Shown: in pieces, positions 2,495-7,334 of the stretch
Layout: each line of letters starts with the position of its first letter
Position numbering within the stretch: the stretch's first letter is position 1
Virus record (IMG/VR): IMGVR_UViG_3300029816_000066
Span: 1-7,517 of that record
DNA length: 7,517 bases
Source: a virus
Taxonomy: Duplodnaviria > Heunggongvirae > Uroviricota > Caudoviricetes
Reading direction: 5' to 3' (one strand)
Notes under the pieces: model-generated
Told to the model about the DNA's origin: nothing
Seen by the model: only the letters and a program-made list of their open reading frames with translations
Databases searched by the model: none
Translations under genes and position numbers: made by a program

Positions 2495-2540
2495 AAAGAA
2501 TAAAAAAATCCCGCAGTGATCGCGGACAGGAACTGCGGGA
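2495..2540 (-). terminator. Intrinsic terminator on the minus strand: 8-bp GC-rich stem followed by a U-tract, abutting the I stop codon
   Basis: On the minus strand, TCCCGCAG (2540-2533) pairs with CTGCGGGA (2516-2509), then TTTTTTTATTCTTTTT follows (2508-2493). The 16-nt loop is long and may form extra pairs. On the + strand the same hairpin is preceded by A-runs and has no T-tract, so it acts only leftwards. Confidence 0.6.
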
Positions 2541-2604: not shown

Positions 2605-2632
2605 ATTATACGCGCCACAGTCAGTTTGTGAA
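2605..2632 (-). promoter_or_regulatory. Sigma70-type promoter on the minus strand: -35 TTCACA, 16-nt spacer, -10 TATAAT
   Basis: Minus-strand TATAAT at 2610-2605 (6/6 to consensus) and TTCACA at 2632-2627 (5/6 to TTGACA), 16-nt spacer. An A/T-rich stretch lies directly upstream (minus-strand GCATAAAAATTCTGAATATC, 2660-2641), resembling an UP element. Confidence 0.6.
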
Positions 2633-2703
2633 AATGTGAAGATATTCAGAATTTTTATGCCATTACCGGTTTTAACCAACAGGATTATCGGTGGGCATGA
2701 AAG

Positions 2704-2740
2704 AAAACCCCGGTATCTGCTGATACCGGGGTTTCTCTTT
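2704..2740. terminator. Bidirectional intrinsic terminator-like hairpin: perfect 10-bp stem, 4-nt loop, A-run on one side and T-run on the other
   Basis: CCCCGGTATC (2708-2717), loop TGCT, GATACCGGGG (2722-2731), followed by TTTCTCTTT (2732-2740) and preceded by AAGAAAA (2701-2707). Confidence 0.7.
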
Positions 2741-2837
2741 AGCATGGCAGAAATGTGTTTCATGCTTTTCGGGCGAAGGATATCCGACTTCTGTACGGAA
2801 TGGCAAGTGGCGGTTAATTTATTCAGGGGAAGGCTGT

Positions 2838-5800
2838 ATGGGAAAAGGTGGCGGTAAGGCACACACGCCTCGTGAGGCGAAGGATAATCTCAAATCCACG
2901 CAGATGATGAGTGTGATTGATGCGATTGGTGAGGGACCGATAGAAGGTCCGGTGAAGGGACTGCAGAGTATTCTGGTGAACAAAACCCCGCTGACGGACA
3001 CGGACGGTAATCCCGTGATACACGGTGTGACTGCGGTCTGGCGTGCCGGGGAGCAGGAGCAGACACCACCGGAAGGCTTTGAGTCCTCCGGAGCTGAAAC
3101 CGGACTGGGCGTGGAAGTGACGAAGGCAAAACCGGTGACGCGCACCATTACGTCCGCGAACATTGACCGCCTGCGGGTTACCTTCGGGGTGCAGTCACTG
3201 GTGCAGACCACGTCAAAGGGCGACCGTAATCCTTCCTCTGTCCGGATTCTGATTCAGTTACAGCGTAATGGCCGCTGGGTGACGGAAAAGGATGTCACCA
3301 TTAACGGCAAGACCACCTCGCAGTTCCTGGCCTCGGTGATTCTGGATAATCTGCCTCCCCGGCCCTTTAACATCCGGATGGTCAGGGAGACGGCGGACAG
3401 CACCACGGACCAGCTGCAGAATAAGACGCTGTGGTCGTCATACACCGAAATCATCGATGTGAAACAGTGCTACCCGAACACGGCCATTGTGGGGCTGCAG
3501 GTGGATGCGGAGCAGTTCGGCGGCCAGCAGATGACGGTGAACTACCATATCCGCGGTCGCATCATCCAGGTGCCGTCAAACTATGACCCGGAAAAACGCA
3601 CGTACAGTGGTATCTGGGACGGCAGCCTGAAACCGGCATACAGCAACAACCCGGCCTGGTGTCTGTGGGACATGCTGACTCACCCGCGCTACGGCATGGG
3701 AAAACGTCTGGGGGCGGCGGATGTGGACAAGTGGGCGCTGTATGCCATCGGGCAGTACTGCGACCAGACGGTCCCGGATGGTTTCGGGGGGACCGAGCCG
3801 CGGATGACCTTTAATGCGTACCTGGCACAACAGCGTAAGGCGTGGGACGTTCTCAGTGATTTCTGCTCTGCGATGCGCTGTATGCCGGTATGGAACGGCC
3901 AGACGCTGACGTTCGTTCAGGACCGTCCGTCGGATGTGGTGTGGCCGTACACCAACAGCGATGTGGTGGTGGATGATAACGGCGTGGGTTTCCGCTACAG
4001 CTTCAGTGCCCTGAAGGACCGGCACACGGCAGTGGAGGTGAATTACACCGACCCGCAGAACGGCTGGCAGACCTCCACGGAACTGGTGGAAGACCCGGAA
4101 GCCATACTGCGCTACGGACGCAACCTGCTGAAGATGGACGCGTTCGGCTGTACCAGCCGCGGTCAGGCCCACCGTGCCGGGCTGTGGGTGATAAAGACCG
4201 AACTGCTGGAAACGCAGACGGTGGATTTCACGCTCGGGTCACAGGGGCTGCGTCACACACCCGGTGACATCATTGAAATCTGTGATAACGACTATGCCGG
4301 GACCATGACCGGCGGACGTGTCCTGTCCATCGATGCCGCCAGCCGTACCCTGACGCTGGACCGGGAGGTGACACTGCCGGAGACCGGCACGGCCACTGTT
4401 AATCTGATTAACGGCAGCGGTAAGCCGGCGAGCGTGGCCATCACCGCACACCCCGCGCCTGACCGGATACAGGTCAGCACCCTGCCGGATGGTGTGGAGA
4501 CATACGGTGTGTGGGGACTCTCCCTGCCGTCACTGCGTCGTCGCCTGTTCCGCTGTGTCTCCATTCGGGAAAACACGGACGGCACGTTCGCCATCACGGC
4601 GGTGCAGCACGTACCGGAAAAAGAAGCCATTGTGGATAACGGGGCCAGCTTTGAGCCGCAGTCAGGCAGCCTGAACAGCGTTATCCCACCGGCAGTGCAG
4701 CACCTGACGGTGGAGGTGAGTGCAGCTGACGGTCAGTATCTGGCACAGGCGAAATGGGACACGCCGCGGGTGGTGAAGGGTGTGCGCTTCAGTCTGCGTC
4801 TGACCAGCGGAAGCGGAGAAGACAGCCGTCTGGTGAGCACCGCCATCACCGCAGACACGGAGCACCGTTTCAGTGGTCTGCCGCTGGGGGAATACACCCT
4901 GACGGTGCGGGCCATTAACAGCTACGGCCAGCAGGGCGAACCTGCGACCACCACCTTCCGGATTAACGCGCCTGCAAAACCCGCCACCATTGAGCTGACG
5001 CCGGGGTATTTTCAGATAACGGCGGTCCCGCGTCTTGCGGTGTATGACCCGACGGTACAGTTTGAATTCTGGTTCTCAGAAAAACGCATCACGAACACAG
5101 CACAGGTGGAAAAATCTGCCCGTTATCTGGGGACCGGCAGTCAGTGGACTGTCCAGGGGAGCCGGATTAAGCCGGGGACGGATTTCTGGTTTTACGTGCG
5201 AAGCGTCAACCTGGTGGGAAAATCTGCTTTTGTGGAAGCCAGCGGGCAGCCCAGCAATGATGGTGAAGGGTATCTGGAAATTTTCCGGGGGCTGATAGAT
5301 GAGACGCTTCTGGGCCAGGCACTGAAAGAGCGCATTGATGCTTCAGCGCTGCGTACGGAGGTCACGCAACTGGAAGAAGACATCCGTCAGCGGATGGACA
5401 CGGATATCGCAGAAGTGACCCGGAAAATCGGGGAGGCAGAAAACAGCCTCACGCAGCTGGTTGCGAAAAAGAATGAGGACCAGACACTGGCCATCGCGCA
5501 GGTGAGCCAGAAAGTGGACCGGGTGAGCAGTGAAATCTCACAGACTGTCAGCCAGGGGCAGTCAGAAAATGCCCGACAGATAGCACAGGTCCGCCAGTAC
5601 GTGGATAAAAAAGGGAGTGAAATTACCTCGACCACGGATAAAAAACTGGGTGACCAGGCCGTGACCATACAGCAAATCCAGCGGGTTCAGTCAGACACGC
5701 GCAATGAGCTGAATGCCATGTATATGCTGAAGGTGCAGAAAACAAAAAACGGTATTCCCTATGTGGCCGGGATTGGTGCGGGGATTGAGGATGTTGATGG

Positions 5801-6530
5801 TCAGACGCTGAGCAGTATTCTGCTGCAGGCTGACCGTATCGCGATGATTACCCCGGAGAATGGCAACACCACGCCGCTGTTTGTGGCGCAGGGGAATCAG
5901 CTGTTCATGAACGACGTGTTCCTGAAGCGACTGTTTGCGGTGAGCATCACGTCATCCGGCAATCCTCCTACGTTTTCCCTGACGCCGGATGGCAGGCTGG
6001 CAGCCCGCAATGCGGATATCAGTGGAGCCATCACGGCGAATACCGGCACGCTCAATAATGTCACCATTAACGAGAACTGTGTCATCAGAGGGAAACTGTC
6101 TGCAAACCAGATTGAAGGCGATCTCGTTAAAACAGTGGGTAAGGCTTTCCCCCGTGGCTCCCGTGCACCGGAGAGGTGGCCATCAGGGACCATTACCGTC
6201 AGGGTTTATGACGATCAGCCGTTTGACCGGCAAATTGTTATTCCGGCGGTGGCATTCAGCGGTGCCAGACATGAGCGGGAGAATAACGATATTTATTCGT
6301 CATGCCGCCTGATAGTACGGAAAAACGGTGCTGAAATTTATAACCGTACCGCGCTGGATAATACGCTGGTTTACAGTGGTGTTATTGATATGCCTGCTGG
6401 TCGCGGCCACATGACGCTGGAGTTTTCTGTATCAGCATGGTGGGTAAATGGCTGGTATCCCACAGCAAGTATCAGCGATTTGCTGGTTGTTGTGATGAAG
6501 AAAGCCACTGCAGGCATCACGATTAGCTGA
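2838..6530 (+). CDS. J: Central tail fibre / host specificity protein J (lambda gpJ-like), 1230 aa
   Basis: N-terminus [22 protein letters not shown]…[15 protein letters not shown] and many later blocks ([93 protein letters not shown]…[40 protein letters not shown]) match my recall of lambda gpJ. A fibronectin-III-like segment lies at about aa 610-700. RBS GGGGAAGG sits 4 nt upstream of the ATG. Confidence 0.95.
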
Positions 6531-6548: not shown

Positions 6549-6576
6549 GGGCGCCAGAAATGGCGCCTTTTTTATT
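6549..6576 (+). terminator. Intrinsic terminator immediately downstream of J
   Basis: GGCGCC (6550-6555), loop AGAAAT, GGCGCC (6562-6567), then TTTTTTATT (6568-6576). Confidence 0.65.
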
Positions 6577-6597: not shown

Positions 6598-7197
6598 ATG
6601 CGTAAATTATGTGCTGTTATTCTGTCCGCAGTAGTCTGGCTGGTTGCCGCTGGTACGCCAGCGAGCGCAGCAGAGCATCAGTCCACACTAAGCGCCGGGT
6701 ATCTTCAGACCCACACTGATATGCCAGGCAGCGATAATCTGAACGGGATTAACGTGAAATACCGTTATGAGTTTACGGACGCGCTGGGGCTGATTACGTC
6801 CTTCAGTTATGCCAATGCTGAGGATGAGCAAAAAACGCACTACAGCGATACCCGCTGGCATGAAGATTCCGTGCGTAACCGCTGGTTCAGCGTGATGGCG
6901 GGGCCATCTGTACGCGTGAATGAATGGTTCAGTGCTTATGCGATGGCAGGTGTGGCTTACAGCCGTGTGTCGACGTTCTCCGGGGATTATCTCCGCGTAA
7001 CTGACAACAAGGGGAAAACGCACGATGTGCTGACCGGAAGTGATGACGATCGCCACAGCAACACGTCTCTGGCGTGGGGAGCTGGCGTGCAGTTTAACCC
7101 GACCGAATCCGTGACCATTGATATTGCTTATGAAGGTTCCGGTAGTGGCGACTGGCGAACGGATGCATTTATTGTTGGTATCGGATACCGTTTCTGA
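6598..7197 (+). CDS. lom: Lom-like outer membrane protein (Ail/Lom/OmpX/PagC family 8-stranded beta-barrel), 199 aa, with signal peptide
   Basis: N-terminal signal peptide (MRKLCAVILSAVVWLVAAGTPASA then AEHQ). Conserved blocks relative to lambda Lom (GINVKYRYE, SVMAGP, SAYAMAGVA, DIAYEGSGSGDWRTD, FIVG(I/V)GY) and a C-terminal aromatic residue (…GYRF) typical of beta-barrel OMPs. RBS GAGAGG sits 5 nt upstream of the ATG. Same position as lambda lom, between J and stf. Confidence 0.9.
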   Translation: MRKLCAVILSAVVWLVAAGTPASAAEHQSTLSAGYLQTHTDMPGSDNLNGINVKYRYEFTDALGLITSFSYANAEDEQKTHYSDTRWHEDSVRNRWFSVMAGPSVRVNEWFSAYAMAGVAYSRVSTFSGDYLRVTDNKGKTHDVLTGSDDDRHSNTSLAWGAGVQFNPTESVTIDIAYEGSGSGDWRTDAFIVGIGYRF

Positions 7198-7302
7198 CAA
7201 CAGACGCCGATTTATCTTCTGTAAATATTGTTATGATACGCAGGTTCATCCGCCTTATGGGGTGAACTGCGTTTGAGGAAACGTAAAGTTACACTGTCCT
7301 GA

Positions 7303-7334
7303 AGCCCGTGGCGTCACTGCTGCGGGCTTTTTTT
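7303..7334 (+). terminator. Intrinsic terminator downstream of lom
   Basis: Imperfect ~11-bp stem with G-U wobbles (AGCCCGTGGCG / TGCTGCGGGCT) around loop TCAC, followed by a T7 tract (7328-7334). Confidence 0.55.

Follow-up and report, generated by a model that had tools for sequence, protein, structure and literature searches.

In a lambda-like prophage of E. coli, the spacer that separates the tail genes I and J encodes a perfect, symmetric hairpin that we predict, from its sequence, to be an intrinsic (Rho-independent) terminator; it is unannotated and of a kind that is already known. Such hairpins are the rule at spacer-bearing I–J junctions, and the one described here is ordinary in this respect. 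We lean towards regarding it as a local, symmetric version of an ancestral punctuation terminator at this junction, at which unmodified RNA polymerase would stop and through which antiterminated late transcription would read. This view builds on the observed structure and strength of the hairpin, on its neighbours and on its distribution across phages.

The tail-tip region and its terminator-like sites

The window, as we call the whole stretch of 7517 bp analyzed here, covers the tail-tip part of the prophage. From the list of open reading frames and from Pfam, we assigned the genes L (469–1167) and K (1173–1916), as well as three genes on the plus strand: the tail assembly gene I (226 aa, 1814–2494, with its stop codon at 2492–2494; Pfam Lambda_tail_I, E = 6.5e-16), the tail tip and host specificity gene J (1230 aa, 2838–6530; seven GpJ Pfam domains) and lom, a moron that encodes an outer membrane protein of the Ail/Lom family (6598–7197; Pfam Ail_Lom, E = 4.6e-128). 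These assignments agree with the RefSeq annotation of homologous loci, and no Q gene lies in the window. The I–J spacer, which holds the hairpin, comprises 343 bp (2495–2837). Of 5426 complete E. coli genomes, 1662 contain this spacer, which is unannotated in every match listed.

On the sense strand, the window has three terminator-like sites in series: the I–J hairpin, a hairpin between J and lom (6549–6568, plus strand, followed by TTTTT; −15.1 kcal/mol, T-score 4.29) and another one after lom (7301–7330, plus strand, followed by TTTTTTT; −20.0 kcal/mol, T-score 3.87). The same three-site series is present in lambda, where the hairpins after J and lom lie at 18920–18935 and 19612–19633, respectively. 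The lambda Q protein renders RNA polymerase resistant to terminators over the whole late operon, and the intrinsic terminators of this operon, i.e. tR' together with the hairpins that follow J and lom, are read through by the modified enzyme. Given this established biology, three terminator-like sites in a series of co-expressed genes fit a Q-type antiterminated read-through. The I–J hairpin of the window resembles the lambda late-operon terminators in having a GC-rich stem and a U-tract between co-expressed late genes, but it differs from them in its symmetry, which gives it a U-tract on either strand, and in lying beside a divergent sRNA promoter.

Structure and strength of the I–J hairpin

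The hairpin spans positions 2705–2734 and can form on both strands. Its arms, AAACCCCGGTATC (2705–2717) and GATACCGGGGTTT (2722–2734), are 100% complementary and pair into a 13-bp stem around the 4-nt loop TGCT (2718–2721); in a repeat search, this was the sole perfect short-loop inverted repeat in the window. The GC-rich 10-bp core of the stem, in which 2708–2717 pairs with 2722–2731, reads CCCGGTATC-TGCT-GATACCGGG and is invariant in 114 IMG/VR contigs, all of which were retrieved by that very arm pattern. As RNA, the hairpin folds with −25.2 kcal/mol from the plus strand and −26.0 kcal/mol from the minus strand, and the core alone with −19.1 and −18.5 kcal/mol; the z-scores of the full hairpin are −7.3 and −7.1, and none of 200 shuffled sequences was equally stable. 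On either strand, the stem is followed by a U-rich tract. On the plus strand, this is TTTCTCTTT/UUUCUCUUU at 2732–2740 (T-tract score 3.43), for which we found the natural variants GTTTCTGTTT, GTTTTCTTT and GGTTCTCTTT; on the minus strand, it is TTTTCTTTC/UUUUCUUUC, the complement of 2699–2707, which is A-rich on the plus strand (T-tract score 4.15). The T-tract score is a scoring of our own, by which we compared the terminator-like sites of the window, and the values of the I–J hairpin lie, for both strands, within the range of the J–lom and post-lom sites; the energy of its core stem is also in line with these two sites.

The sequence thus combines the features expected of an intrinsic terminator, a stable GC-rich stem with a short loop and a U-rich tract 3' of it, in both directions. 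A preliminary description of this DNA had proposed a perfect bidirectional terminator hairpin between I and J, inside the tail operon, and this proposal is borne out by the 13-bp stem and the U-rich tails as well as by an RNA fold that is of terminator grade on both strands (z about −7). A consensus terminator scan did not list the hairpin, and it also missed the I–J hairpin of lambda; we think that the window hairpin escaped the scanner because its stem extends into the A/T tracts and consumes the T-run. Rfam covariance models found no match in the window (E ≤ 1) and none in the homologous loci L001–L004 (E ≤ 0.1).

Folds of 2650–2850 (plus strand) and 2770–2697 (minus strand) also contain a second, weak hairpin at 2742–2766, AGCATG-N13-CATGCT followed by TTTT, which comes right after the main hairpin on the plus strand. 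Two small ORFs across the main hairpin (ATG at 2657, 66 aa; ATG at 2746, 37 aa) were discarded, having neither a ribosome-binding site nor other support.

The repeat might also act as DNA, for instance as a site of protein binding or recombination, or it might be a chance inverted repeat without RNA function. A dimeric protein could bind to a perfect inverted repeat of 10–13 bp whose arms are 4 bp apart, and a conserved box near 2660, to which we return below, is a point of module exchange. However, the A-tract and T-tract around a GC-rich stem form a terminator signature, the fold is far beyond that of shuffled sequences, and a sequence-specific site does not explain the recurrence of hairpins with T-runs, unrelated in sequence, at the same junction in other phages. 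We consider a function at the DNA level, or none, extremely unlikely.

A divergent pasB allele next to the hairpin

The other occupant of the spacer is a predicted sRNA gene on the minus strand, which we assign to pasB. PasB, a known Hfq-dependent sRNA, is encoded between E2348C_1436 and E2348C_1437 of strain E2348/69, on the opposite strand, at 1466343–1466261 of NC_011601 (Pearl Mizrahi et al., 2021, PMC8550237, table S6), which correspond to I and J in the prophage PP6. The window has a divergent allele of this gene at ~2502–2598, as judged from its position, from its alignment to E2348/69 and from the published northern probe AATCCCGCAGTGATCGCGGAGCT, which matches 2507–2529 at 20 of 23 positions, with 0 matches expected by chance. 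The published ends of the E2348/69 RNA align to 2583 and 2502, and from the position of the promoter we predict a start near 2598. Like PasB, the gene lies in the I–J spacer and antisense to the tail genes, with a conserved promoter, core and terminator; unlike that of E2348/69, its body is a divergent allele. Directly after the stop codon of I, 2502–2598 would encode a minus-strand sRNA that ends at the hairpin CCCGCAG...CUGCGGG followed by U7.

The terminator hairpin of pasB (2510–2540, minus strand; −15.7 kcal/mol) is followed by U7, the complement of 2502–2508, and was recovered by the terminator scan. It has a T-score of 3.32 on the minus strand and of 0.38 on the plus strand, so that no terminator is predicted in the plus reading, and in alignments it is kept in all pasB alleles. 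Its putative sigma-70 promoter (2605–2632, minus strand) consists of a −35 element TTCACA (2632–2627), a 16-nt spacer and a −10 element TATAAT (2610–2605); with 11 of 12 consensus positions, it is the top promoter-like site in the window. The preliminary description had also postulated an independently transcribed minus-strand insert in the spacer, which we can now identify as pasB with its own predicted promoter and terminator.

The body of pasB is a local hot spot of diversity, with 85–88% identity compared with 98–100% in the flanks and at least six alleles, across which the promoter, the core UUAAUCUUC and the terminator are conserved (window; L002, L003, L140–L219). By eye, the longest exact run between the window allele and PasB of E2348/69 measures about 25 nt. 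Since exact runs are this short, a BLAST survey with a word size of 28 (Zhu et al., 2026, preprint) may undercount pasB.

Upstream of the gene, alignments of the long and short forms of the spacer share a conserved box, AAAATGTGAAGATATTCAGAATTTTTAT (2630–2658, unstranded). Within this box and just upstream of the pasB −35 element, we noticed a CRP-like pattern, TGTGA-N6-TCAGA (2635–2650), which occurs once in the window against 0.03 occurrences expected. It is centred at about −44.5 relative to the predicted pasB start, which is a non-canonical spacing. PasB has been reported to be higher in a non-activating than in an activating condition, and we think that a candidate control of pasB by cAMP-CRP would fit this condition dependence.

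PasB appears to have been described under other names as well. EcOnc22, EcOnc23 and EcOnc24 are Hfq-bound RNAs of about 85 nt from EHEC, and EcOnc22 is destabilized without Hfq (Tree et al., 2014, PMC4104026); they are located in the I–J spacers of the Sakai prophages Sp15, Sp14 and Sp11. The coordinates of the old Sakai record lie ~136 nt below those of the current one, as follows from the Rfam hit of AgvB and its published peak. After a correction of ~+136 nt, the peaks of EcOnc22–24 fall on the body of the pasB homolog (about 2166830–2166889 of NC_002695.2 and the equivalents in Sp14 and Sp15), and the CLASH hybrid reads labelled EcOnc22 and EcOnc24 (GCCTGAAAAATAACTCCATAACGTTAATCTTCA...) are body sequence of the homologous Sakai allele. 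By sequence and position, EcOnc22–24 and PasB are one family. Pearl Mizrahi et al. (PMC8550237) give no EHEC homolog in their table on PasB. An apparent placement of EcOnc22–24 antisense to the hairpin of the short spacer form proved to be an artefact of the ~136-nt record shift, given that the CLASH reads match the body of the pasB homolog. Two further candidates for a spacer RNA were dismissed: AgvB and other anti-sRNAs sit at the PR' moron site and not between I and J, and there is no Rfam match; HnrS (EcOnc10–12) has its place near the lysis genes.

Three alternative modules between pasB and J

For a view of the spacer across prophages, we collected 80 IMG/VR loci with I genes at least 93% identical to that of the window, of which 68 could be classified and 12 could not. 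The pasB module is present in all 68 classified spacers. Beyond the conserved box AAAATGTGAAGATATTCAGAATTTTTAT, at ~2660, the J-proximal modules part ways. The long module with the I–J hairpin accounts for 26 of the 68 spacers, and in one further spacer, the long module has cleanly lost the hairpin through a 48-bp deletion. In another 32, the module is short and its hairpin is not the same, namely CAGGCAYCC-TCCG-GGRTGCCTG followed by TTGTTTTT, which is terminator-like on the sense strand only, and the remaining nine are of an 851-bp form with a minus-strand gene for a Cu/Zn superoxide dismutase, sodC. Alleles of pasB and J-proximal modules occur in mixed combinations, and pasB is found without the window-type hairpin in 41 of the 68 classified spacers. 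The type locus of PasB in E2348/69 also has no window-type hairpin: in an alignment of its 240-bp spacer with the window, homology extends through pasB, its promoter and the box, and ends at ~2660.

Of 5426 E. coli genomes, 1446 have the long module (2660–2837), and its identity is almost always 99% or higher. A distant blastn search with the same segment returned only E. coli copies of at least 95% identity, 1442 of 1451 at 99% or more, along with 13 phage records of at least 99%, and it did not connect this segment to the spacers of lambda or of the short form. We do not take this extreme conservation as a sign of function, considering that the flanking coding sequences of I and J are equally conserved. 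The long-form stem likewise shows no visible covariation, and it receives no support of this kind because it never varies. In the short-form hairpin, one pair runs through C-G, U-G and U-A, and the observed score is reached by 85 of 500 shuffles, which is not significant.

The deletion of the hairpin is a natural one, carried by the contig L192 (IMG/VR 2671180417_000014), where a spacer of 295 bp remains, and it apparently occurred between the short repeats GAAAGAAA and GCAGAAA. The hairpin is therefore dispensable for keeping the prophage.

It may also be asked whether the hairpin ends a transcript of its own, namely a second minus-strand sRNA of about 74 nt that would run from ~2770 to ~2697, in tandem upstream of pasB. 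A promoter-like sequence, TTGCCA-18-TATCCT, with 9 of 12 consensus positions lies on the minus strand at 2806–2777, and the predicted transcript, with a 5' stem-loop, the linker AAAGAGAAA and a strong terminator with the better U-tract, would have the shape of an Hfq-binding sRNA. The promoter match is weak, however, with six such sites in the window against 4.3 expected in shuffles. For the copy in Sakai Sp12, where the hairpin lies at 2217494–2217523 of NC_002695.2 and the tail genes run on the minus strand, the EcOnc list of Hfq peaks has no entry and the CRAC and CLASH tables have none nearby; the text of the RNase E CLASH supplement has no coordinates beginning with 22173 or 22174, and Rfam has no match. 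Short-form hairpins are devoid of a minus-strand U-tract, so that ending such an sRNA would not be a general role of the position. Altogether, we consider a second sRNA very unlikely.

Hairpins at the I–J junction of other phages

Hairpins before J are not confined to relatives of the window. In lambda (NC_001416), the I–J spacer of 60 nt consists mainly of a hairpin at 15465–15484, AAACCGCC-TGCG-GGCGGTTT followed by TGTCATTTAT. Lambda_ev066, mEpX1, and prophages of Enterobacter, Rahnella and Pantoea whose I proteins are 32–45% identical each have their own GC-rich stem of 7–9 bp, followed by 6–7 T and located roughly 10–15 nt before the start of J. The virulent phages T1, NJS1 and phSE-2 also have a hairpin and a T-run before J, and in NJS1 a rho-independent terminator annotated by the depositors ends in the I–J spacer. 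Thus, a sense-strand hairpin with a T-run precedes J in every spacer-bearing junction type sampled, including the window. By contrast, seven other sampled phages, in which I and J overlap or abut, have no I–J spacer or hairpin, so the feature is restricted to certain lineages.

The stems of these phages are unrelated in sequence, and what is conserved is the architecture. The window hairpin resembles those of lambda, mEpX1, T1, NJS1 and phSE-2 in its junction, its strand logic and a similar stem strength. It differs from the lambda-type hairpins in its length (13 bp versus 7–10 bp), in the absence of sequence homology to the other junction hairpins and in being split from I by the pasB insert. 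Furthermore, its end and the start codon of J are 103 nt apart, compared with roughly 15–60 nt elsewhere, and only this version is clearly bidirectional. Having no homology to the lambda and short-form hairpins and lying farther from J, it occupies the ‘same position’ by analogy.

In T1 (L222) and phSE-2 (L230), an extended −10 sequence, TGTATAAT and TGTACAAT, respectively, follows right after the hairpin and T-run, which suggests that the I–J junction is a boundary of transcription units in these phages.

These comparisons bear on an explanation in which the stem-loop acts after transcription: it would protect or process the 3' ends of late mRNA and give the I-side and J segments different stabilities, with no polymerase stop. 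Comparable hairpins occur in lambda, both behind the capsid gene E (7163–7180), which is highly expressed, and between other late genes, and the I–J hairpin is kept in temperate phages although Q-modified polymerase would ignore terminators. Yet a pure stability element needs no U-tract, and U-tracts beside the stem are kept in every type sampled; besides, the promoter-like extended −10 after the hairpin in T1-like phages points to true termination. We consider a purely post-transcriptional role unlikely, although a role in stability is compatible with termination at the same hairpin.

Equally, they bear on the view taken in the preliminary description, by which the hairpin is a moron boundary that came with the minus-strand insert and shields its promoter on both sides. 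The hairpin is indeed symmetric, good U-tracts on both sides occur only in the long form next to pasB, and the I–J spacer takes other morons, such as sodC and a lipoprotein-like ORF (L132, L133). The geometry, however, does not allow the shielding from rightward read-in that had been proposed. The hairpin sits on the J side, 72 nt upstream of the pasB −35 element, and transcription arriving from I would pass the pasB terminator, which is not terminator-like in this direction, then the pasB body and promoter, and only then the hairpin. It follows that the hairpin cannot shield pasB against rightward transcription, and stopping read-in from J is the sole part of the insulation idea that the geometry allows: here the hairpin could act. 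The role as a boundary of the inserted unit does not hold either. At 2705–2734, the hairpin is outside the PasB RNA and upstream of the pasB promoter, and hence no part of PasB; pasB carries its own, separate terminator; and the J-proximal side is taken by three alternative modules, with most classified spacers and the type strain E2348/69 carrying pasB without the window-type hairpin. Finally, the arrangement had been regarded as the usual architecture of a moron boundary, but lambda, mEpX1, the T1-like phages and the Enterobacter, Rahnella and Pantoea prophages have a pre-J hairpin without pasB, at the same position and without any insert, which suggests that the position predates the insert. 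An insulator acquired together with the insert is, in our estimation, improbable.

Morons of lambdoid phages were reportedly treated by Juhala et al. in 2000; our examples are lom, bor and the prophage gene sodC. The spacer resembles such moron sites in that it accommodates self-contained units, each with a promoter and a terminator of its own, where relatives have two adjoining genes. Unlike moron terminators, the hairpin of the window is not the moron's own, for a junction hairpin is also present in moron-free phages.

A probable punctuation terminator in the tail operon

The explanation that we favour, if only by a modest degree of confidence, is that 2705–2734 encodes the local, symmetric form of an ancestral punctuation terminator, i.e. 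an intrinsic terminator-type RNA hairpin that would be able to act in both directions. The position before J may have punctuated tail-tip gene clusters of the lambda type since long ago, and in the prophage lineage of the window, pasB would have inserted between this position and the stop codon of I, where sodC would have lodged in other prophages. A rightward polymerase without the late antiterminator modification would stop at the hairpin, so that stray transcription past I and pasB would be kept out of J and lom in the lysogen. During lytic growth, Q-modified polymerase from the late promoter would read through, and if a fraction of the polymerases terminates, J mRNA may be less abundant than that of the tail genes before it. 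In the long form, the second U-tract would halt leftward (antisense) transcription from J some 70 nt short of the pasB promoter and thereby leave pasB under its own promoter. We infer from the structure and position of the hairpin that it terminates transcription in vivo, that antitermination allows read-through and that pasB and J are affected as described.

If this is true, the hairpin marks a stop for unmodified polymerase in a tail operon found in roughly one in four complete E. coli genomes; carriers of this prophage tail operon include ST131 and O157:H7. Provided that it terminates, it also helps explain how pasB stays under its own promoter. More generally, the terminator position between I and J would represent an architecture conserved from lambda to T1-like phages and a recurrent site of cargo such as pasB and sodC, and the junction could be used by annotators who seek prophage sRNAs.

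A bolder version would make the junction a conserved regulatory checkpoint, which sets the dose of J, the receptor-binding protein, or gates J–lom expression in lysogens, serves as a landing pad for morons and, in the long form, ends a second antisense sRNA; this combination appears quite unlikely to us.

Other cargo of the spacer and atypical records

Occupied by pasB, sodC or a lipoprotein-like ORF, the I–J spacer evidently serves morons as a site of insertion. The minus-strand sodC (Pfam Sod_Cu, E = 4e-32) was found at the I–J site of L190, L199, L202 and L209, which have 851-bp spacers, and also in L136. Since sodC replaces the pasB promoter and pasB lies downstream of it, the pasB body and terminator could belong to the 3' UTR of sodC in these loci. 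The lipoprotein-like ORF, which is encoded on the sense strand and starts with VKKYGLVLFGVLFISGCAP, was observed in L132 (Enterobacter wuhouensis) and L133 (Pseudocitrobacter faecalis).

A scan of genome contigs with protein I yielded only 12 loci, several of which are E. coli contamination in unrelated assemblies. Three short contigs, assigned to Streptomyces flavalbus (L128), Parendozoicomonas haliclonae (L130) and a Clostridiales MAG (L136), carry a pasB-bearing tail of the E. coli type and are most likely contamination. The record MW057783.1 (‘Campylobacter phage CJLB-4’, 48,361 bp) has K and I genes that resemble those of lambda in sequence and in coordinates, and it seems to be a genome of the lambda type whose host label is unexpected.
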